From a bacterium (GTDB lineage Bacteria; Patescibacteriota; Patescibacteriia; UBA10025), in NCBI GenBank assembly GCA_021815445.1, contig JAKAGM010000001.1:403710-467709 (forward strand): DNA of 64,000 bases, in the 5' to 3' direction. Positions 9,452 through 55,913 of this stretch are shown here, piece after piece. The position numbers and the translations under genes were made by a program. Positions within the stretch are counted from its first letter, which is position 1. Every line of letters starts with the position of its first letter. Under the pieces are notes generated by a model. That model did not search any database and had not been told where the DNA came from. It saw nothing but the letters and a program-made list of their open reading frames with translations.

Positions 9452-12283
9452 TTATCTGTTCTTTCTGACAAACTCCATATGCTCATCAACGGGTGTTTCA
9501 ACGACTTTCTCTATGGGCGGATTTAGCGGGAGGATGAACTGGAATGTACTCCCCTTGCCTTTGCCTAAGCTTTCCACCCAGATTTTCCCTCCGTGCGCTT
9601 CGGTGAGACGGCGTGCGACATAGAGCCCGAGTCCCGATCCGTCAGGATTGATCTGCGCGATACCGTATCCGCGGACGAACTTGTTAAAAAGTCCTTTCGC
9701 CTCTTTCGGTTCGATGCCGATACCGGTGTCCTTGATGCGCACGTGAAGATTGTCCCCTTCCACTTTCGCGCTGACTGACACGGAGCCCTTGTCGGTGTAC
9801 TTGATGGCGTTATCAATCAGGTTCATCACCACGTCGGAGATTTTATCCGAGTCAAAAGGAACTTTGGGGAGCGGGCCCTTTATTTTTTCGAATACAAGCT
9901 TGAGCTTCTTGTCTTCGGCTGCTTTTTTGAGCACATCTACGCTCTTGACGATAATGTCTTCGATGCTCGCGGGAGCTTTTTTGAGCACTAGGTTGCCCGA
10001 CTCTATCTTTGACACGTCGAGGAAAATTCTGATGAGGCGGATCATGCGCTTGGATTCCTCGAGTAAACTTTGCATGATCCCGAGCTGGTCCTTTTTTACC
10101 TTGCCGAAGTCGCCGCCGACAAGCATCGACAGGTACCCCATGATGCCGGTCATCGGCGTACGGAGCTGGTGCGAAGCGATTGATACGAATTCTGATTTGG
10201 CCTGGTCAAGCTCTTTTAAGTGTTCGTTGGCCTCTGCGAGTTCCTTGTTCGATTCCTCTATTTCCCTGTACAGCTCGATGTTCTTATACACGATGCCTGT
10301 CTGGTTAGCGAGCGCTTTCATAATCTGCAAATCTGTTTCCTTGAGCTCACCCGGATCCGCGTCGAGCACATAGTCGATAGCGCCCACCATCTCGCCTTCT
10401 GACTGAATTGGAACAGCGATGACGGTCTTAACGCCGAGGGTGCGCTGAATCGCATTTGCCGCATCCGCCGGCACAGGCGGAGAAATGAACTCTGCAAGCT
10501 TCTCCCCTATTTCCACCTTGCCGGCTTTGATGGAGCGTATGGAGCGTGTATTATCTTTATCAAAGCGTCCCCAAAGTTCGGATATAGGTTTCGGGAGGAA
10601 TTTGATAATTTTGTCGGTGCGCGCGCTTTTGGTGATAGCTTCAGGGAAGAGTTTCCGCCTGTCTTTGCCCAGGAACAGCAGGATGCCTCCGATGAAACCC
10701 ATTTCAGTGGCGATAGAATCAACAATGTCCTGCGTGACGCGCTTCAGGTCAAGCGAACGTGTCATGAGCGTGGTGACTTTCTGGATGGCCGAGAGGAACC
10801 TGTTGCGCTCCTGCAGTTGGGAGTTCGTCGACTGCAAGTCGTGGGTCGCGATATCTATTTCTTTTTGCAGTTGGACATTGAACTGCTTGATCTGGTCGTA
10901 GAGCTGGGATTTCACGATGGCCGATGCGAGCTGGGGGCCGAGCAGTTCAAGCAGGTTAATGTCCTCATCCCCGAACGGGTCGCCCGAAAGCTTATGCCCG
11001 AGCACGAGCACGGCGTTGACGTCTTTCTCGACAAAGACCGGCGAGACGAGGGACGCGTCAAGCTGGTCGAGCTGTTCCTTTGAGCCCTCCAGGTCAGCCC
11101 GGGCCTGTTCGTCAGTCGTATCCTCTATCTTCCGCTCGAGCGCTTCAAGCACCACGACGCGCTTTGACGCAACGAGATACCGCATGAGCGGGCTCGTGCG
11201 CCTGATCGAGTACGCCTGGTGCACGCCCTCCCCGCGCACGACAAAGTCTCCCCGTTTCGTCGGAGCCACATAGACGACGGTCCTGCTGATTTTCAAATCT
11301 CTCGTGAGTTTGTCTTCAATGAGGGTGGTGAGCTTGTTCAGGTCAATTTCGCGGTTGATGATGTTGGAAAGGTCTGAGAGAAGTTTTTGGTAGTCAATGC
11401 GCTTTTTGTAGAAAAGGTTGTCGGTTACGTTAGCTATGAAGCGCTTCAAGGGATCAAGGATGAGGACGATAAAGATGGAGACACCAATAGCAATAAGACC
11501 TTTTGCTGCGAGCGAAACACCAAGACTCTGGGGAAGTAAAATTGCTAGACCAATAATTGAAGCTGAAAATAACAAGACCACGATCGAAAAGGCTACCGCT
11601 CTTAAAACTAGAACTCTAACATCTAACAACTGATGTCTGAATATCGCATAAATGATAAAAATCAACCAAATAATTGAGAACGCAGGACCAATTTGGATCA
11701 AGTTGTAGTTGCCTATCCAAGGTAAAATCAGATTAAACGATACACCAATGATACCCGACATAAGAGTTCCAATAAGTAAATATCGAAGCTGCAACCTAGA
11801 CGTTCCTTGCGACCTACGGAGATTACTGAAATAGTTAATAAATAAGATAACAAAATAGAAGATAAACCAGAGACTGTATAAGTGGTAAAGTGACCCCAAG
11901 TCAATGATGTTTGGATTGCCAACTATGACTCTTTTAATGAAGTACTTAGTTGGAATCAAAAAAACAAAAAGAATAAAAGGTGCAGTCGTGAGAAAGAATT
12001 TTAACTTTCCAAAAGACTTATGCCGATAGGGGAAAAGAAAAGAGAATTGCAGTAAACTTGTCGCGATAAGAGCCGCAGCTATGTAATATTCAATTCCCCA
12101 GATTTTTGCCAATTTAACACTTCCTGACATACGAAACATCGCGATCCCAAATACCCAACCAATGATTCCTAATACATAAAACAAGAAGACTCTGTTCTTT
12201 AATGAATCACTTTTTCTATAAAGCAAAATAAAAAGCAACACAAACTCGAGTATCGCCTCTATTATCAGGATATTATTAAGCAT
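9452..12283 (-). CDS. sensor histidine kinase (7TM N-terminal sensor, two GAF-like domains, HisKA, HATPase_c)
   Basis: 943 aa. About 7 N-terminal TM helices. H-box ASHQLRTPMTGIMGY. ATPase motifs IDNAIKYT, GSGLGLYVARRL, GKGSTF. The N-terminal third is markedly AT-rich compared with the kinase core. Confidence 0.85.
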   Translation of the reverse strand: MLNNILIIEAILEFVLLFILLYRKSDSLKNRVFLFYVLGIIGWVFGIAMFRMSGSVKLAKIWGIEYYIAAALIATSLLQFSFLFPYRHKSFGKLKFFLTTAPFILFVFLIPTKYFIKRVIVGNPNIIDLGSLYHLYSLWFIFYFVILFINYFSNLRRSQGTSRLQLRYLLIGTLMSGIIGVSFNLILPWIGNYNLIQIGPAFSIIWLIFIIYAIFRHQLLDVRVLVLRAVAFSIVVLLFSASIIGLAILLPQSLGVSLAAKGLIAIGVSIFIVLILDPLKRFIANVTDNLFYKKRIDYQKLLSDLSNIINREIDLNKLTTLIEDKLTRDLKISRTVVYVAPTKRGDFVVRGEGVHQAYSIRRTSPLMRYLVASKRVVVLEALERKIEDTTDEQARADLEGSKEQLDQLDASLVSPVFVEKDVNAVLVLGHKLSGDPFGDEDINLLELLGPQLASAIVKSQLYDQIKQFNVQLQKEIDIATHDLQSTNSQLQERNRFLSAIQKVTTLMTRSLDLKRVTQDIVDSIATEMGFIGGILLFLGKDRRKLFPEAITKSARTDKIIKFLPKPISELWGRFDKDNTRSIRSIKAGKVEIGEKLAEFISPPVPADAANAIQRTLGVKTVIAVPIQSEGEMVGAIDYVLDADPGELKETDLQIMKALANQTGIVYKNIELYREIEESNKELAEANEHLKELDQAKSEFVSIASHQLRTPMTGIMGYLSMLVGGDFGKVKKDQLGIMQSLLEESKRMIRLIRIFLDVSKIESGNLVLKKAPASIEDIIVKSVDVLKKAAEDKKLKLVFEKIKGPLPKVPFDSDKISDVVMNLIDNAIKYTDKGSVSVSAKVEGDNLHVRIKDTGIGIEPKEAKGLFNKFVRGYGIAQINPDGSGLGLYVARRLTEAHGGKIWVESLGKGKGSTFQFILPLNPPIEKVVETPVDEHMEFVRKNR

Positions 12284-15193: not shown

Positions 15194-16594
15194 TTAATCT
15201 TCGGCTACACCCTTAACAGCTCGCGCAATCGCCATCCGATACATTTCCGCTTGGACGAGCGCGCTGTTGGCGTGTACGTAGAGCTTTTTCAGATAGGCAA
15301 TCTGTTCGGCAAAGAGTATTGCACGGGAAGACTTGTTCACCAGCACACCGATAGCGGTAAGCGTATCCTCGTGCCCGAAAGGTAAAAGTGCGCGGATGTG
15401 GTTTTCCCTCAGGAAGTTTTGCGCGGACTTAAGTAACCGCGCTTCTTCATTAGAGAATCTCTCCAATCGGTAAGGCAACTCATCGACAACAAGTATCTCC
15501 TGCCGCATTCTCAGAAATTGAGCAAGTTCCCCATGAGCTGCAATGTTCACTCCGCCTTTATTATCCCGGAAATCTTGATCCGGGCTGCTTCTCTGAAGAA
15601 TGTACCCGTCATACTCAGGCAGTACTCGCGCGAGCTCTGAGCGGATTTTCTCCACAAGGTCATTGAAATGCACTGATGATTGGGCGACTAACTGCAGTCT
15701 TTGCAAAGAATCAGACTGTTCCTTTTCGCGGCTGACAAAAATCCGATCTACGAAGGAGTAGATCAGCCTGCGAAGGGGCTCCGCGGTAAAACCGACAATC
15801 AAAATAGCGATAAAGATTTTGACTCCCTCGGTAAGAATGGCGTACTGGGTCAACTGTTGTAAGACAACAATAAGATATGCATAAGTGATAAAGAGAATAG
15901 CGAAGGAGAAAAACTGGACAATCCCCTTGCGTATTACAAACTGGATATTAAAAAAACGGTAACGGGTGATCGCATACGATATAAATGAAGCAAAAACAAG
16001 TGCCGTGAGACTGTCAAATCTTGCCAGCCACAATACATGGTGGAGAGGTGAAGCAAAATCAATGATAATAATAATAAATATTGGGGCGGCAAAGCCAAGT
16101 AATACGTAATTTAACTGCATTCGCTCGAGTCCCGAGGCCTGGTGTCGCATCTGCACTAAATGACTAACCGCCCAAATCAAGATGCATGAGCTTGGAATAG
16201 CATAAAGAAGAAAGTATTTTCCATCCGCGATTTCAAAACCGCGAGGCGTGGTGAGCACTTGCATTGCAATCACCAGATTAGGAATAAGCGCAAGAAAAAA
16301 TAAAACTACAGAGTATATAATAATCGCAAATTTTACCACGGGTTTAAGTATCAGTTTGGCATATGCCGCAGCCCAAAAGAATATTCCGCCGATAAGCAAC
16401 GCGCCGACCGAATACGTTAGATTCACATATGGATACCGAGGGAATTGATAGTATATATAATTAACAAAAACCCAAAACGCTATAAGGAATACCAGATAAG
16501 CAAACTTTTTTTGGATATCATTTCTTGCCTTTCTGAGCACGACAGCTCCTAGGACAAGATTGAATACTCCGGCAATCAAAATAAGGATATTCAT
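15194..16594 (-). CDS. kinase-less 7TM + GAF-like sensor-module protein (paralogue 3)
   Basis: 466 aa, about 7 TM helices plus a cytoplasmic GAF-like domain. Shares RYRFFNIQFVIRKG...AEPLRRLIYSFVDRIFVSREKE motifs with the two neighbours and with the N-terminus of histidine kinase 9452..12283. No H-box or ATPase motifs. About 36% GC. Confidence 0.6.
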   Translation of the reverse strand: MNILILIAGVFNLVLGAVVLRKARNDIQKKFAYLVFLIAFWVFVNYIYYQFPRYPYVNLTYSVGALLIGGIFFWAAAYAKLILKPVVKFAIIIYSVVLFFLALIPNLVIAMQVLTTPRGFEIADGKYFLLYAIPSSCILIWAVSHLVQMRHQASGLERMQLNYVLLGFAAPIFIIIIIDFASPLHHVLWLARFDSLTALVFASFISYAITRYRFFNIQFVIRKGIVQFFSFAILFITYAYLIVVLQQLTQYAILTEGVKIFIAILIVGFTAEPLRRLIYSFVDRIFVSREKEQSDSLQRLQLVAQSSVHFNDLVEKIRSELARVLPEYDGYILQRSSPDQDFRDNKGGVNIAAHGELAQFLRMRQEILVVDELPYRLERFSNEEARLLKSAQNFLRENHIRALLPFGHEDTLTAIGVLVNKSSRAILFAEQIAYLKKLYVHANSALVQAEMYRMAIARAVKGVAED

Positions 16595-16599
16595 AATAG

Positions 16600-18042
16600 T
16601 TATTTCATAATCCTCTCAATCGCCATCCGATACATTTCTGCCTGCGTGAATGCGTTGTTCGAAATTGCATGAAGCTTCTTGATAAACGCGATCTGTTCAC
16701 TGTAGAGCACACTTCTTGGAGATTTTCCTATAAGCAGGAAAATAATGGAGACCCGGCCTTCTTGGTCCAAAGGTAACACCGCCTTAATTTTATGCTGGGC
16801 TAGAAACGATTGGGATTCGCGCAAAGCCCGAACTTCGTCCTCGTCGTACCTATCGAGTTTATAAGGAATCTCGTCGGTCACCAAGAGTTCAGTGTGCTGT
16901 TTTAAGAAAGTTATCAATACATGATCAGATGGAATTTTCACATTCATTTTTCCTTTGGCGGTAAATTCATTGTTTTCTCTTTTTAATACCGCAACATCAA
17001 AATCGTTAAACACATGCGAAAGCTCGCTTCGGGTTTTCTCAATAATCTCATCCACGTGCGACGCCGAGCGAGCCAATAACTGCATCCGACTCAGCGCTTC
17101 ATCCTGCTCCCGCTCCTTGCCGGCGAAGATTCGATCAATCCATCGATAAATAAATCTCCGTAGAGGTTCGGCGGTCACGCCAACCACCAGCACGGCAATA
17201 ATAAGAAGCGTTTCACTTGAAATATCAAGAGAACCCCTGACATTGCGTTGAAAGAAAAGTATGAGATAGATATAGACGCTGAAAAGCAGGGCAAAAGTTA
17301 CAAACTGGACAAACCCTTTTCGTATCGCAATACGAATATCCATGAGACGATAGCGAACGATACCATAACTCATTAATATAGCCATAATGACCGTGGCTAG
17401 GGGCCCATAGGGGGAAACAACAGCATAGTGTGATTCAATCCCCTTAGTTACAAAAGCGGGGTACAATAAATTTGCGTAAAGCCCGGCAGCGGCAGCGACA
17501 CTGAATCCAGCAAATACCCAAACTACTTTCAAACGCTCAATTCCACTCGATTTCAGCATTCGAACAAAGAGGATAGCTAAACCAACTAGAATAAATAATA
17601 GAATATATGCTGCATATGGATAATATAATCTCCCATATATATTATCGTTTATTTGCTGCCGAGGAAGTATAATAAGTTTGGATGAAATTAAGCTTGTGTA
17701 GCTTACTATGAAAAAGAACCCGGAAACCAATAACAACGAATACTTAGTAAAAGGATGGATAGTGATCTTTTTTGGAAAGTAAAAACTGAAGAATAGGAAG
17801 GAAGATGCAATGATCGCCGCAAATGCAAAAGTAAAATACGTCCAAATAAGCGCCGGGTAATAATCTTTTAAGTTTCCCGAGAACCAATTAGATAATACCC
17901 ACCCTGAGATAGAAAAACACAGTATAAAAAATAACTGATTTACTCGCTCTCTGGGACGATGTAATAATACAACCAGACCCAGTATAAAATTGGAAATTGC
18001 AACAAGTAATGTAATAACGAAAAAAGTGTCCATATTAAGCAA
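16600..18042 (-). CDS. kinase-less 7TM + GAF-like sensor-module protein (paralogue 2)
   Basis: 480 aa with the same architecture (RYRLMDIRIAIRKGFVQF...AEPLRRFIYRWIDRIFAGKEREQDEALSRMQLL). 5-bp gap to paralogue 3. Confidence 0.6.
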   Translation of the reverse strand: MLNMDTFFVITLLVAISNFILGLVVLLHRPRERVNQLFFILCFSISGWVLSNWFSGNLKDYYPALIWTYFTFAFAAIIASSFLFFSFYFPKKITIHPFTKYSLLLVSGFFFIVSYTSLISSKLIILPRQQINDNIYGRLYYPYAAYILLFILVGLAILFVRMLKSSGIERLKVVWVFAGFSVAAAAGLYANLLYPAFVTKGIESHYAVVSPYGPLATVIMAILMSYGIVRYRLMDIRIAIRKGFVQFVTFALLFSVYIYLILFFQRNVRGSLDISSETLLIIAVLVVGVTAEPLRRFIYRWIDRIFAGKEREQDEALSRMQLLARSASHVDEIIEKTRSELSHVFNDFDVAVLKRENNEFTAKGKMNVKIPSDHVLITFLKQHTELLVTDEIPYKLDRYDEDEVRALRESQSFLAQHKIKAVLPLDQEGRVSIIFLLIGKSPRSVLYSEQIAFIKKLHAISNNAFTQAEMYRMAIERIMK

Positions 18043-18054
18043 TGTATTATCCAG

Positions 18055-19452
18055 TTATTTCGTAATCCTCTCAATCGCCTGCTTATAGGCTAAAGCGCTG
18101 GTGAAAGAAAGTGTGGCCTGCTGACCAAAGTTTTTTAGAAACTTGATTGAATCTGCGGTAAAAGTCGGAGAGCTTTTTGTATCCGGGAAAACATAGGCCC
18201 CGAGAAATTCATCACCTGATCCAAGTGGCATTGCTAGGGCAATTCCTTTTGCCTTGAGACTTTCTAGAATGGTACCCAACCCTTCTTCGCCTTCTTCTAT
18301 TCGATAAGGTAATTCCTCTGTGATAAGGATTGTTCCTTTTGATAATTCATGACTGAGTGCGTCGTTAGAGGGAATAGTGAGATCGCCTTTCGGGTAACTT
18401 GTAAGTTGATTCTTCTGTGGGTCAAAAAGAAGAAAGGAGGTCGAACATCCAAGCACTTTATTGAGCTCTGCTGAAACTTTCTCGACAAGCGACCGGAACT
18501 GCATTGTAGAACGTGAAATCAGCTCGAGGCGCTGGAGAGCTTCTTTATCCGCACGTTCTTTGCTCGCAAATAGTTTATCGATAAACCTATAAATAAAGCG
18601 CCGTAATGGCTCGATGGTAATAACAATCAAAAGGACGGCGATGAGAACCGTGTTGCCCTCCGAGAAATCCAGCGAATCCTTCGCTGCTTTCTGTAAAAAG
18701 AGAATGATGTAAGTATAAATGCCGAAAAGGGTGCCGAAAGTGAGAAACTGGACAAGTCCTTTACGAATAATTATTCTGATGTCGAGGAAACGGTAACGTA
18801 GTATTGCGTAAAAGCTACATAGTGCAAATGTTAACGTTGATATGTTCGCAATCCCAAAGTAATAAGTTTCATGCCGATTGTAAGCAAAGAAGACGCTCGC
18901 ACTCAACCCTACCACAACAGAGAAAGTGTAACTAAATAGAACATATTTGAGCTGCAGCTTTTGGATACCTTTTAATATTCTGTATTTTAGCAACAGAGCA
19001 CCTAATGAGATTGGAATAAAATAAATGGTTAATATCCCAAGATAAATGAAATATTGAGAATAATTGTATATTAGGTTGTCCCCATCATAAAAAAATATTT
19101 TTCCAAAAAAAGTTAATGCAACGACAAAAAGAATAGGAAAAAGGAGAAGTAGCTCTTTCGTCAGAGTAAGCTTTTTACTTTCACGAGGGAAATGTAAGGA
19201 AAAAATAGCAACAAAATACGAAATCATTGCAGCAGCGGCGAAGTCCATTTTTGAAAAAATGAGATTCAGATTTGGACTTTGCCGTAACGAAGAAGTTTCG
19301 AGTGCCCCAGATATTACCCAAATGGTCCCAAAAATGAGAAAACCAACAAACCGGCGATAGGTTTTATGTTTTTTCCTACTCCTCAAGGTCACAAAAGTCA
19401 GTAACAAATAGGCAGCTGCTGTTAGAACTATCAAGAAAAAGATGATATCCAT
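18055..19452 (-). CDS. kinase-less 7TM + GAF-like sensor-module protein (paralogue 1)
   Basis: 465 aa with the same architecture (RYRFLDIRIIIRKGLVQF...IEPLRRFIYRFIDKLFASKERADKEALQRLEL). 12-bp gap to paralogue 2. Confidence 0.6.
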   Translation of the reverse strand: MDIIFFLIVLTAAAYLLLTFVTLRSRKKHKTYRRFVGFLIFGTIWVISGALETSSLRQSPNLNLIFSKMDFAAAAMISYFVAIFSLHFPRESKKLTLTKELLLLFPILFVVALTFFGKIFFYDGDNLIYNYSQYFIYLGILTIYFIPISLGALLLKYRILKGIQKLQLKYVLFSYTFSVVVGLSASVFFAYNRHETYYFGIANISTLTFALCSFYAILRYRFLDIRIIIRKGLVQFLTFGTLFGIYTYIILFLQKAAKDSLDFSEGNTVLIAVLLIVITIEPLRRFIYRFIDKLFASKERADKEALQRLELISRSTMQFRSLVEKVSAELNKVLGCSTSFLLFDPQKNQLTSYPKGDLTIPSNDALSHELSKGTILITEELPYRIEEGEEGLGTILESLKAKGIALAMPLGSGDEFLGAYVFPDTKSSPTFTADSIKFLKNFGQQATLSFTSALAYKQAIERITK

Positions 19453-31699: not shown

Positions 31700-31900
31700 G
31701 ATTTGGGGGATTTGTCAAGGGAAAATCGCATCACCCACCCCATTCTACCGCAGGCACGGCGGCTCGCCTCGCTAAGCCTACGGCGAAGCGGGCCTGCGGT
31801 GGGGTTCGGGGGCGAATATGTTGTACCACATTTCGAGCGCGGGCCGCCGTGCCCACGGTCGAAATGTTGGTGCCCGCGGTCGATTCGTTTTTGGGCGATC
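31700..31900. repeat. cluster of GC-rich REP-like hairpins (GGGGGCGAATA...CGAGCGCGG family)
   Basis: Inverted repeats (CCACCCCATTCTACCGCAGG/CCTGCGGTGGGG; CCCACGGTCGA...CCCGCGGTCGA) in a non-coding stretch. The motif GGGGGCGAATA...CGAGCGCGG is shared with the insert inside the transposase gene at about 32600. Confidence 0.5.
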
Positions 31901-32021
31901 GCGGGATATGAACAAACAACCCTTGACGTGGCTCGTCTTTTTTGCAATAATTATGCCTGCTGGATATGGGTACCGTTGATGTACTCATTTGCCGATGTGT
32001 TCACCTTACAGGAGGCAATAC

Positions 32022-32208
32022 CATGGACAAAGACAATTCCCCACCAGCAGTCGATCCTTCCACCATTTCGCCTGAGCTGGCCGAAGTTCTGGCCCATCAC
32101 GGGTCATCGGCGCTCCCAAGCAAAGGGAATCTTCCCCCGGCGAAAGGATCAACCCTTCGCATCCAGTTCGACGAACGCCACAAGGGTGATTCCTGCAAGC
32201 TGCTCTAA
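32022..32208 (+). CDS. hypothetical small protein (62 aa)
   Basis: ATG at 32022 preceded by AGGAGG 8 nt upstream. Pro/Ser-rich with no recognisable domain; sits in the REP-rich region. Confidence 0.3.
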
Positions 32209-32330
32209 GGCCATCTGCCAAACGAGCGCTTGCGCGAGCCAAAGATCATGTGATCTGCGGCTCTCTTTTTATATGTAAATTATCCTATTATTTTTAATAA
32301 TTCAACATAGATGAATTTGATCGCCCGCTT

Positions 32331-32891
32331 TTACAACAACCGATTGATTTTTTTACCATCAACAAATTGATACGGAGCCATGTGGTATTTGGCGGGCAAT
32401 TCGGATTTGATAGGGTTAAATGTAATGTATTCAATAACGGTGCGGAGATATCCATCATTGTCCACGATGCGGGCGTAAAAACGGGGTTGGAGGATGGAAT
32501 ACGGGATATCATATTTCACGCGTATTTGTTTTGCGAAATACGATTTTACCGTATACATGAATTGGGAAATGGTGTAACCGGCATCCCCCACCGCGGACAC
32601 GGAGATCCGCGGTGGCGATTGGGGGCGAATACATTTACCCCCATCCCGAGCGCGGCTCTCTGCGGCCGCGCTCGCATATGTATTTTGTTTCACCAATACA
32701 TGCACATGGTCCGGCATGATTTGGTACGCCAAAATGTCGAACCGTTTTAACCGGCCCGCGTTGACCATTATTCTCCCCAAAATTTCCGCATATTCGGTAT
32801 CCTCGAATAACAACAAATCCACACGCGTACGAAACGTGACAAAATACGGATATTCATATTGATGGATGCGCCGTTGGGTCATAATAAACAA
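32331..32891 (-). mobile_element. IS200/IS605-like Y1 (HUH) transposase, REP-associated tyrosine transposase (RAYT)-like, carrying an about 90-nt in-frame palindromic insert
   Basis: HUH motif MPDHVHVLV. C-terminal LQPRFYARIVDNDGYLRTVIEYITFNPIK matches the RAYT WQxRFYDH...YIxxNP block. About 30 extra residues (ASAAAESRARDGGKCIRPQSPPRISVSAVG) lie between the two conserved blocks, encoded by a GC-rich palindromic segment in an otherwise AT-rich gene. Confidence 0.65.
32585..32670. repeat. REP-like double-hairpin element inserted in frame in the transposase gene
   Basis: CCACCGCGGACACGGAGATCCGCGGTGG and GAGCGCGGCTCTCTGCGGCCGCGCTC palindromes. Shares GGGGGCGAATA and CGAGCGCGG with the intergenic cluster at 31700-31900. 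Confidence 0.55.
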
Positions 32892-35330: not shown

Positions 35331-35418
35331 AGAATGAAAAAAGTAAAGGGCGGCCCAACGAAGAGGCGGGATTCGGAATCCCGCTACCTTGCGCATCGGC
35401 CGGATTCAGAATCCGGCC
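35331..35418. repeat. intergenic paired-palindrome element, copy 1
   Basis: AGAATGAAA..AACGAAGAGG leader, then GCGGGATTCGGAATCCCGC (35366-35384) and GGCCGGATTCAGAATCCGGCC (35398-35418), followed by an A-run. Confidence 0.7.
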
Positions 35419-35499
35419 TCATCATAATAAAAAAAGCTTCCCAAAGACTTCTTGGGAAGCGGAACGAGCGAAAGTCGAACCCGAAAAGGTGTGAACGGC

Positions 35500-37344: not shown

Positions 37345-37419
37345 AGAATGAAAGAGCAACGAAGAGGCGGGATTCGGAATCCCGCTACAGGGCGTATCGG
37401 CCGGATTCAGAATCCGGCC
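37345..37419. repeat. intergenic paired-palindrome element, copy 2
   Basis: Same leader, GCGGGATTCGGAATCCCGC (37367-37385) and GGCCGGATTCAGAATCCGGCC (37399-37419), then an A-run. Confidence 0.7.
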
Positions 37420-37491
37420 TACTCACAATTTTAAAAAAACGCCACCCACAATACGACATGTGAGTGGCACGGAACAAACTTCAGAGAACGA

Positions 37492-39479: not shown

Positions 39480-39614
39480 CGATTAATAACAGCGAGGAGG
39501 CGGGATTCGAAATCCCGCTACAGGGTGCGTCGGCCGGATTTCCTTCGGGCCCGCCTTCGCCCTGAAGGGCTCTCCTCGAATCTGAGACTCTCGAGTCGAA
39601 GACAGAATCCGGCC
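39480..39614. repeat. intergenic paired-palindrome element, copy 3, with a 62-nt insertion splitting the second palindrome
   Basis: GCGGGATTCGAAATCCCGC (39500-39518). GGCCGGATT (39532-39540), then a 62-nt insert (39541-39602, containing its own hairpins CCTTCGGGC/GCCCTGAAGG and GAGACTCTCGAGTC), then CAGAATCCGGCC (39603-39614). Confidence 0.65.
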
Positions 39615-39683
39615 TACTCACAATAAAAAGCAGCCCCGGGTTACTCCAAGGCTGCTTGTCTAACTGCTAACTACTGTGGCTAT

Positions 39684-54422: not shown

Positions 54423-55175
54423 ATGAATGCCTCGAAACATCAACTGGGCTGCCTCATCATCCATGGGTTTACGTCGCACAGTTCATCACTTGAAGCCGTT
54501 ATTCCTGGATTGGACAAACGTCGCATCCCCTGGCACTACCCCATCCTCGCAGGACACGGGACGGGTCCTAAGGATCTCGAACGCGCAACATGGGAAATGT
54601 GGCAGAAGGATGCAGAAGATGGTCTGAACTACCTGCTGGGGACATCCGACAGAGCCGTCATTGTTGCACTTTCGATGGGGACTCTTCTGGCGCTGGAACT
54701 TGCCGAGAAATATCCCGACCGCGTCGCCGGGCTTGTGCTGCTGTCCCCTTGTTTGCGTTTTTATTTGAAACTTGTGAAATTTACGCCTATCCTTACCAGG
54801 GTGTTAAAACGTTTTCCAAACCCGAGCGCAGCTAAGTTCAGTTCTTTGGAATATGCAAAGCGCGACAAAGGGTATCTCTGGTTTCCGACACTCGCTTTCA
54901 GACATTACTGGATTCGAACTCAACATTTTGATTCAGTGTTAGAAAACGTTCACCAGCCGGTGCGCATCATTCATTCAAAAAACGACAAGGTAGCCGACCC
55001 GTCTGGCGCGCAGCACATTTATCATCATCTTCCGTCAAAGCACAAGGAGCTCATCTGGCTCGAGAAATCAGGACATGAGGTACTATTGGATAGTGAAGCA
55101 GACACTGTATTGCGGTATATTTTTGAGTTTGAAATATTTGCCGAGTCAGCGCAACCGCAGAGAGTCGCGCTGTAG
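54423..55175 (+). CDS. alpha/beta hydrolase (carboxylesterase-like)
   Basis: 250 aa. IIHGFTSH N-terminus; nucleophile elbow LSMGTLLA. Confidence 0.75.
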   Translation: MNASKHQLGCLIIHGFTSHSSSLEAVIPGLDKRRIPWHYPILAGHGTGPKDLERATWEMWQKDAEDGLNYLLGTSDRAVIVALSMGTLLALELAEKYPDRVAGLVLLSPCLRFYLKLVKFTPILTRVLKRFPNPSAAKFSSLEYAKRDKGYLWFPTLAFRHYWIRTQHFDSVLENVHQPVRIIHSKNDKVADPSGAQHIYHHLPSKHKELIWLEKSGHEVLLDSEADTVLRYIFEFEIFAESAQPQRVAL

Positions 55176-55223
55176 GTTTTAATTAGTGAGCGCAGCTCTC
55201 CGCGGCTGCGCGAACTTGATCAC

Positions 55224-55913
55224 TTACTCAATCAGCGTCCCCTGGAACTTTGCCCCGCTGAGAATCTTCCGTACATTCACGAGATCCGTTCCGAGGCAGA
55301 CGACGACCTTCACGCCCAGCTGCTTGGCCAGTTTTGACGCCTCCGGATCAAAGGGTATGTGCCTTCCGGGGACATGTTTTGAACCTGCCAGCTTGAGAAA
55401 GTCATTCCAGCTTATCCGTGCGATCGGCTTTGCGTCTTTGTCCTTACGCGGGTCAGCTGTGTAGACGTAGCGGATGTTACTGAGATTAATCACCAGGTCG
55501 GCTCCATACGCCTGGGCAAGCATGATGGCATCCTTGTCGGACGAGGAGCCCGGTTTCCACCCGGCACCGACGAGAATCTTTTTGTCTGTCACGACTCTCT
55601 TGGTAGGATTATGCAGTACTTCGTAATATGCGAGTTTGCCGAAAAGCGTCCGGACCAGTTCGGCGTTCATTTTCGTCGATGCGATACCGATCCAGTCGAG
55701 ATCATCGGCAGACATGGCCGGAACAATTTGTTTCGCGGCTTTTTGATATTCCCGGCATACGCTGCCGCCTCCCGCGACAAGGATAAAACGAAACCCTTTT
55801 TTCGCGAATTCAGTAATAACAGTGCGAAACTTTTTCAGGAAAGCCGTATCAACCTTAGCCGGGATGATAATTGATCCTCCGAGGGATATAATGATTGTTC
55901 GTCGAATGCTCAT
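55224..55913 (-). CDS. pyrH: UMP kinase (amino-acid kinase family)
   Basis: 229 aa. IIISLGGSII, VAGGGSV, ILVGAGWKPGSSSDKDA, YVYTADPRKD and GTLIE align with the PyrH motifs. Confidence 0.75.
   Translation of the reverse strand: MSIRRTIIISLGGSIIIPAKVDTAFLKKFRTVITEFAKKGFRFILVAGGGSVCREYQKAAKQIVPAMSADDLDWIGIASTKMNAELVRTLFGKLAYYEVLHNPTKRVVTDKKILVGAGWKPGSSSDKDAIMLAQAYGADLVINLSNIRYVYTADPRKDKDAKPIARISWNDFLKLAGSKHVPGRHIPFDPEASKLAKQLGVKVVVCLGTDLVNVRKILSGAKFQGTLIE

Follow-up and report, generated by a model that had tools for sequence, protein, structure and literature searches.

A 64,000-nucleotide (nt) stretch of a Patescibacteriota genome (Patescibacteriia; UBA10025; assembly GCA_021815445.1, contig JAKAGM010000001.1, positions 403,710 to 467,709 of the forward strand; hereafter, the window) contains a small Y1 HUH nuclease gene, at 32331..32882 on the minus strand, whose GC-rich middle portion is built of inverted palindromes. 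We consider it very probable that the gene encodes a single-copy, chromosomally fixed nuclease of the RAYT (tyrosine transposase associated with repetitive extragenic palindromes, or REPs) or TnpAREP kind, which carries a doublet resembling a REPIN (REP doublet forming a hairpin) in the loop that follows its HUH strand (beta3-alphaC in the terms of Escherichia coli TnpAREP), and that the palindromic unit of this doublet belongs to a dispersed family. A sequence-only reading of the same DNA had proposed that a REP-like unit landed inside this transposase gene while keeping the reading frame. The in-frame, REP-like segment between the HUH and tyrosine blocks is indeed present, but its landing is not particular to this gene: in each of the 22 intact close homologues that we examined (21 loci and a syntenic orthologue), hairpin units occupy the same loop, directly behind the HUH strand.

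The nuclease gene and its hairpin segment

The gene and the parts of its variable segment are as follows, in window coordinates.

32331..32882, minus strand: coding sequence of a Y1 HUH nuclease of RAYT/TnpAREP type, 183 amino acids (aa), starting with the ATG at 32882
32700..32708, minus strand: HUH motif codons (H62-V-H64, in 186-aa numbering), both histidines invariant in alignment A1
32427..32429, minus strand: putative catalytic tyrosine codon Y155 (IEYITFNP), invariant in A1 and aligned to the DYIYINP helix of 4ER8
32571..32693, minus strand: GC-rich hypervariable segment of 41 codons, VKQNTYASAAAESRARDGGKCIRPQSPPRISVSAVGDAGYT, linking the HUH strand to the conserved helix that follows
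32646..32675, plus strand: palindromic unit 1, antisense to the gene, CCGAGCGCGGC tctctgcg GCCGCGCTCG, encoding ASAAAESRAR
32621..32642, no strand assigned: central spacer hairpin GGGGGCGAATACATTTACCCCC, with a 6-7 bp stem in the single-stranded DNA (ssDNA) fold; its GGGGGCGAATA part is shared with a copy at 31808
32587..32616, minus strand: palindromic unit 2, sense with the gene, GCCACCGCGGA tctccgtg TCCGCGGTGGG, encoding PPRISVSAVG

The 186-aa open reading frame (ORF) on which the sequence-only reading was based exists (32331..32891, minus strand, with a TTG start at 32891), but the start common to the homologues is the ATG at 32882, which yields a 183-aa product identical to database protein P0001. 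The proposed RAYT/IS200-like identity is borne out by the Pfam Y1_Tnp model PF01797 (34.8 bits against a cut-off of 23, matched in two stretches), and the protein scores 70.2 bits with the NCBIfam model REP_Tyr_transpos (NF047646) versus 23.3 bits with the IS200 model. Its closest solved relative by sequence is Escherichia coli TnpAREP (4ER8; E 6e-9). An AlphaFold (AF2) model with a predicted template-modelling score (pTM) of 0.77 and a per-residue confidence (pLDDT) above 90 in the core has 4ER8_A as its top Foldseek match (E 9e-8), with 4ER8, 2XM3, 2VJU, and others at probability 1.00. As judged by sequence and by modelled fold, the window protein is nearer to TnpAREP than to IS200 TnpA. Both of the motifs that had been read from the letters, PDHVHVLV (HUH) and IEYITFNPIK (the tyrosine helix), are present, and H62, H64, and Y155 are invariant across the homologues in A1.

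The neighbours of the gene are housekeeping genes; there are no insertion sequence (IS) ends and no adjacent tnpB, and a blastn search of the 64-kb window found no second copy of the Y1 gene. The genomes of the group carry one or two Y1 paralogues, retrieved at differing identities to the query, with several genomes holding two. An assembly chimera was rejected on the grounds that independent assemblies (ENA and Logan) are identical in sequence to the window.

Over the 123 nt of the segment at 32571-32693, GC content reaches 63%, compared with 42% in the rest of the gene and 52% in its flanks, which agrees with the earlier description of a GC-rich insert in an otherwise roughly 42% GC gene. 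The two palindromes that had been called near-perfect both have perfect 10-bp stems and 8-nt loops: unit 1 pairs 32647-32656 with 32665-32674 (on the coding strand, CGAGCGCGGC cgcagaga GCCGCGCTCG), and unit 2 pairs 32588-32597 with 32606-32615 (CCACCGCGGA tctccgtg TCCGCGGTGG). The units are inverted relative to one another, because their loops are roughly reverse complements, and together they span 32587-32675 as an inverted pair with a short spacer, which is the architecture of a REPIN. With R1, a covariance model of the unit that we searched over the window and the homologue loci, unit 1 scores 44.3 bits (E 4e-7) and unit 2 scores 38.8 bits (E 5e-6). The ssDNA fold of the segment reaches -35.6 kcal/mol (z = -5.5), and none of 200 shuffles was as stable. 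Rfam (at gathering score) and tRNA scans of the whole window returned no match, and the hairpin clusters are therefore not a known RNA family.

On the protein fold, the segment forms a low-confidence loop that comes right after the HUH strand. This loop has 9 residues in E. coli TnpAREP (4ER8) and approximately 42 in the window protein, and pLDDT is approximately 50 at residues ~70-105 and above 90 elsewhere. The model shows the in-gene copy read through as a predicted disordered surface loop of ~33 residues, with the catalytic core undisturbed, and we infer that the translated loop is functionally neutral. Two other candidates were discarded, a diversity-generating retroelement for the lack of a nearby reverse transcriptase and an intein or intron for the continuity of the reading frame.

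Persistence of the site and turnover of its content

A protein search recovered 25 relatives, and a scan of GTDB representative genomes recovered 53 loci. The named relatives in the protein search are labelled Patescibacteria or RayT, and all relatives of at least 34% identity come from metagenome-assembled genomes (MAGs) labelled Patescibacteria, Parcubacteria, Kerfeldbacteria, or generically "uncultured." Among loci L003-L023, 21 genes are intact and have a scorable variable region, and every one of them has, at the same position, a variable stretch of 31-73 residues encoded by one to four perfect GC-rich hairpins, with a GC content of 0.48-0.71 versus 0.29-0.44 in the rest of the gene; 23 database homologues in A1 show a like pattern. 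Unit number, order, and orientation vary freely from homologue to homologue, and the orthologues do not share the window protein's 30 residues as a conserved domain, the region being hypervariable. Because all 22 close homologues have units in the same loop and the same frame, the insertion is old, and only its content turns over. A more distant, 31%-identical relative from a Nitrospirae MAG (L026) is without the insert and keeps the whole core, with only eight residues at the site; the insert was therefore gained within the family.

Thirty in-gene hairpins, when oriented by their loops, align without gaps (alignment A2) to the consensus CCnA-GCGC-nnn-[yCTCyGyG]-nnn-GCGC. The unit is a 22- to 30-nt GC-rich palindrome that comprises a 5' CCNA foot, a GCGC core, three covarying pairs, and an asymmetric loop of 6-8 nt (yCTCYGYG), and the loop classes of 8, 6, and 4 nt are variants of one 22-nt core. 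Double-sided changes occur in 5 of 11 pairs, and the covariation score is 0.435, versus 0.135 for shuffles. The foot is kept in both orientations of the unit relative to the gene (A4 is invariant and C2 is at least 90% conserved), and its 3' complement shows no such conservation, which gives the unit a polarity of the kind that a foot gives a REP.

By inspection, all three frames of the unit consensus are free of stop codons, yet one codon phase is used per orientation: all 17 forward units share a phase, and a different phase is common to all 14 reverse units. Forward units are translated as P-R/Q-x-x-S-x-P-A-x and reverse units as S-A-x-A-E/D-T/S-R-A-R, and the peptide motifs that recur across genomes are translations of the two strands of the unit. 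This regularity bears on the possibility that the segment is a protein-level domain, such as an extra DNA-binding or interaction loop, in which palindromes are incidental: the segment is always present and always in frame, with one frame per unit orientation, and motifs such as PRAQPAVVAR and AGTAARAR recur across genomes. Nevertheless, we regard such a domain as improbable, given that amino acid sequence and length are hypervariable (25-115 residues), AF2 confidence is only ~50, the recurring peptides are what the two strands of the unit encode, like DNA units lie in noncoding intergenic DNA in both orientations, and the insert-less relative keeps its entire core.

The syntenic orthologue, P0002 (69% identical; locus L056), lies in the same gene order as the window gene: PBP, Mur ligase, cupredoxin, 3HCDH, PurH, SLT, Y1, and Band_7. 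From this shared order it follows that the Y1 gene is vertically inherited and does not transpose. Nucleotide identity between the two genes is 86% in the N-terminal part and 77.5% in the C-terminal part, compared with ~54% (best gapped alignment) in the variable segment after a shared 17-nt remnant. The in-gene units of L056 differ from those of the window and run in the opposite arrangement, (+)(-) rather than (-)(+). Different units at the same site in a syntenic orthologue indicate that the content turns over fast while the site is fixed. L056 also has a doublet directly after the Y1 stop codon, between Y1 and Band_7, and one stem of this 3' doublet (GTGAGCGCACCC...GGGTGCGCTCGGGG) is identical to that of one L056 in-gene unit, a sequence match that hints at exchange between in-gene and extragenic copies within the genome.

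The sequence-only reading had also entertained a recent inactivation, that is, a REP insertion that has disabled or is disabling the gene. Three relatives are indeed damaged at or after their hairpins: in L024 (10208-10239), an in-frame TGA is formed by the loop of a 14-bp hairpin; L025 (~10001-10560) is frameshifted; and L027 (10001-10280) is cut off shortly after the hairpin, with a duplicated ~110-nt leader and three extragenic units ahead of it. For the window gene, inactivation is nonetheless highly improbable, the least probable of the explanations that we weighed: the ORF is intact, with its HUH and tyrosine residues in place, the modelled core is confident, the syntenic orthologue retains its frame and catalytic residues, and 21 further close homologues also keep the frame.

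Three observations concern the gene and its surroundings. The loop can expand greatly, as in L029 (10001-10800), in which the variable region comprises ~115 residues with several hairpins and a tandem peptide repeat (QRGLSHIS / QRGLSHIP). The nonhairpin part of every clade gene (the window gene and L003-L023) lies ~5-17 GC points below its own 10-kb flanks, as in the window (0.42 versus 0.52), though the window gene is syntenic and vertically inherited. Finally, the window has an extra ~480 bp (31900-32330) between the Y1 stop codon and the doublet downstream of it, absent from L056, within which the ENA record annotates an 80-aa ORF (31966..32208, plus strand) as a gene; this ORF is without a Pfam match.

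Units outside the gene

Copies of the palindromic unit occur at three sites in the 64-kb window, namely, the gene itself and two others.

31743..31883, plus strand: free-standing, partly eroded doublet, located ~450-590 nt beyond the 3' end of the gene, immediately upstream of the leader of the Band_7 gene
55147..55215, no strand assigned: second free-standing doublet, with units at 55147-55172 (-) and 55186-55215 (+)

Plain blastn with the insert gave only 10- to 17-nt matches in the window, and the copies were seen with an ungapped repeat finder and with R1. Within the first doublet (fold z of -3.4), R1 recognizes one unit, at 31833-31862 (26.2 bits, E 0.002). The sequence-only reading had pointed to motifs shared between the gene and a hairpin cluster at 31700-31900, and these do recur (GGGGGCGAATA at 31808 and CGAGCGCGG at 31834), although they are weak when taken alone, with 21 and 4 of 100 shuffles, respectively, equalling them. 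They are, however, part of a 66-nt ungapped similarity in the same orientation (31796-31861 versus 32609-32674; 71% identity), whose score of 28 exceeds that of all 1,000 dinucleotide shuffles (mean 9.3, standard deviation 1.3, maximum 15). We considered whether this doublet is the remnant of a second Y1 gene, its translation in the frame of the Y1 gene, GTAARARNVVQHIRPRTPPQARFAVG, resembling the in-gene peptide, but no Y1 core flanks it, and L056 has a clean doublet there. The units of the second doublet score 23.7 and 31 bits (E 0.008 and 2e-4) and sit exactly between the convergent ORFs 54423..55175 (+) and 55224..55913 (-); the stretch 55140-55220 folds as one long REPIN-like hairpin.

Extragenic units are also found at homologue loci: in L027 at 7333, 9564, 9829-9894, and 9940 (three of them 5' of the gene), in L015 as a doublet (5997/6043), in L028 singly (7527), and in L056 as the 3' doublet (10582/10631, spanning 10582-10660). 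Cognate hairpins hence adjoin the gene as a 3' doublet in the window and L056 and as three 5' units in L027. At L027 9829-9894, the loop of a unit holds another hairpin (GAGCGCGGG ... CCCGCCC..GGGCGGG ... CCCGCGCTC), which suggests that hairpins have been inserted into unit loops in a nested manner.

A census of perfect stems in the 20-kb flanks of the homologues had suggested that units are nearly confined to Y1 genes, a bias that came from selecting each locus for its Y1 gene and that was corrected by an exact-pattern scan of JGI metagenomes. That scan yielded 13 loci. A single one, L058, falls within a Y1 gene; the remaining 12 show no Y1 match, and most of these are located between ORFs. 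Five of the 12 (L057, L062, L063, L067, and L068) are doublets with an AT-rich spacer, four of them arranged (-)(+), like the in-gene copy, and one (+)(-). The unit family is a dispersed REP/REPIN-like element that occurs as singles and doublets in intergenic DNA, mostly by gene ends. In metagenome sample Ga0265297, a free-standing unit on a 262-kb contig (L061, 2066-2095; GCGCGGG cgcggaga CCCGCGC) is identical in stem and loop to the in-gene unit of a Y1 gene on a 312-kb contig (L014/L058); this identity is compatible with within-genome copying, the two contigs not being tied to one organism.

These distributions also bear on whether the hairpins are kept mainly for a nucleic-acid-level function in their own gene, be it autoregulation, in which the nuclease binds its own gene or mRNA, or pausing, attenuation, or mRNA stabilization by GC-rich stem-loops in an AT-rich message. 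Stems stay perfectly paired as their sequences change, loops are conserved, and the element persists in every intact close homologue despite fast sequence turnover. Moreover, there are ~1-2 distinct perfect GC-rich hairpins (stem of at least 8) per 550-bp gene versus ~1 of any kind per 5-10 kb outside, only three or four outside hairpins in the flank census are of this unit type, and REPs have known effects on the stability and translation of mRNA (cited in PMC6006769 and PMC3733652). Perfect stems are, however, equally expected of young copies of a mobile palindrome, and free variation in the number, order, and orientation of units would be surprising in a precise regulatory structure. As the principal reason for the hairpins, such a function seems unlikely to us, though it is compatible with a dispersed REPIN-like doublet residing in a RAYT gene.

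Several points weigh against the interpretation as a RAYT with an internal, REPIN-like doublet. Few copies are found beyond the gene (the 64-kb window has two further sites, and the 20-kb flanks around the homologues hold few units), and no units lie 5' of the window gene, unlike in classical REP-flanked RAYTs. The GT[AG]G foot, which E. coli TnpAREP needs, is missing, with no GTAG in the 30 aligned units. The units used for covariation were picked for perfect inner stems, which inflates the percentage paired. That the protein would act on the units is argued by analogy and co-occurrence only. Lastly, at 70.2 bits, the window protein does not reach the curated NF047646 cut-off of 80; because this shortfall arises from the insert splitting the match in two, we do not take it as evidence for another family, and the insert-less L026 is matched in one piece, at 81.5 bits.

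Other features of the window are separate from this system. A second, unrelated REP/BIME (bacterial interspersed mosaic element)-like family of intergenic repeats is present at 35356-35435, 37357-37436, 39490-39569, and 39603-39629; every copy has a double hairpin (GGCGGGATTCGGAATCCCGC ... GGCCGGATTCAGAATCCGGCC) with an A/T-rich tail after it, and three copies within 4.3 kb are 63-88% identical to the reference copy over 80 nt. These may be terminators or another family of mobile palindromes. Three tandem paralogous ORFs (466, 480, and 465 aa) with conserved 3' ends and junctions occupy 15194-19452 on the minus strand, the first of them without an NCBIfam match. The window also encodes PurH and a FadB-like protein, which are unusual for Patescibacteria, as well as type IV pilus genes.

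Relation to known systems and significance

In-frame REPs within a RAYT gene have been published before, in the TnpAREP subclass 2.4 (RAYT group 4) of Quentin, Siguier, Chandler, and Fichant (2018; BMC Genomics 19:475, PMC6006769), whose insertion falls at beta3:alphaC and varies in length and sequence, and the present case leaves that picture unchanged. The genes described here resemble subclass 2.4 in having a Y1 HUH core of TnpAREP type, a variable insertion of REP repeats between beta3 (HuH) and alphaC that keeps the frame, one or two divergent copies per genome, and a low REP copy number; low-frequency flanking repeats only are also reported for group 4 by Bertels et al. (2017; PMC5581495). 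They differ in their motifs, the window protein having DHVH, LQ, and YITFNP in place of the NH[IFV]H, WQ, and YIxNNP listed in Table 1 of that study (among the A1 homologues, some have NH[VI]H, many WQ, and a few YIxNNP), in the shorter N-terminal part of the window protein, in their occurrence in Patescibacteria MAGs rather than Cyanobacteria and Bacteroidetes, in the CCNA rather than GT[AG]G foot, and in the flanking units of the window gene, which are on the 3' side only. One locus that we recovered (L051) is a classical subclass 2.4 case, with a GTAG...CTAC double-foot REP in the same loop and copies flanking the gene. The literature search found no paper on this clade or unit.

Other systems share parts of this arrangement. 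E. coli TnpAREP/RAYT with its REP-BIME elements (4ER8; Messing et al. 2012; Nunvar 2010; Ton-Hoang 2012), the best match in sequence and fold, is likewise a single-copy gene at a fixed chromosomal position that is associated with GC-rich hairpins with a conserved 5' foot, but its REPs flank the gene and are never inside it, have a GTAG foot, and number in the hundreds. REPINs (Bertels and Rainey 2011) are, as here, inverted unit pairs with a short spacer that can fold as one long hairpin, are RAYT associated, and lie extragenically near gene ends; they have a different foot sequence and occur in tens to hundreds per genome, whereas the copy number here appears far lower (three sites in a 64-kb window) and one doublet lies within the coding sequence of the RAYT. 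Rickettsia palindromic elements and intragenic REPs (Ogata et al. 2000; PMC3733652) are also in-frame palindromes, often dimers, that are translated and tolerated as surface segments of 20-30 residues. Their hosts are many unrelated genes (Di Nocera et al. 2013 [PMC3733652] list numerous genes with REPs inserted in frame), whereas here the host is the presumed mobilizing enzyme and the site is constant across the clade. With IS200/IS605 TnpA, the window protein shares the Y1 HUH fold and a chemistry that recognizes hairpins, but its gene is without IS ends, tnpB, or identical multiple copies, and its position is syntenic.

We propose the following sequence of events. The doublet would have entered the gene once, in an ancestor of the clade, as the insert-less 31%-identical relative leads us to infer. 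Since then, it may have been replaced and reshuffled through exchange with the dispersed copies, either by gene conversion between units or by single-strand cleavage and joining of the TnpAREP type at the hairpin feet, with selection presumably holding the length to a multiple of three and the units to one frame. By analogy with E. coli TnpAREP and REP, the dispersed units are likely substrates of the encoded nuclease.

A bolder idea, which we hold to be doubtful, is that the in-gene doublet is no passenger but a protected "master" copy of the REPIN-like population or an autoregulatory operator, and that these genes form a new, Patescibacteria-specific class of RAYT-REPIN. Lying within the sole gene that encodes a product able to move it, the doublet would be shielded from decay by selection on the ORF. 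If so, it could reseed or homogenize the dispersed copies, or serve the nuclease as a means of sensing and throttling its own expression; a RAYT with an internal REPIN would be a self-contained nested replicator, the inverse of a transposase inside IS ends, and the one-frame rule, the clade-wide persistence, and the non-GTAG foot would define the class.

In practical terms, the covariance model R1 can be reused, and the syntenic orthologue pair, with different units at one site, is a natural experiment on turnover. Annotators should not take the low-complexity, GC-rich middle of these "transposase" proteins for a domain, as it is repeat DNA that has been translated. RAYT-REPIN systems are a rare, vertically inherited partnership between mobile DNA and a host gene. 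What is new here is a clade from ultra-small, streamlined genomes of the Patescibacteria type, in which the nuclease gene always includes a REP-like doublet in frame and the hairpins are of a type without the canonical GTAG guide.

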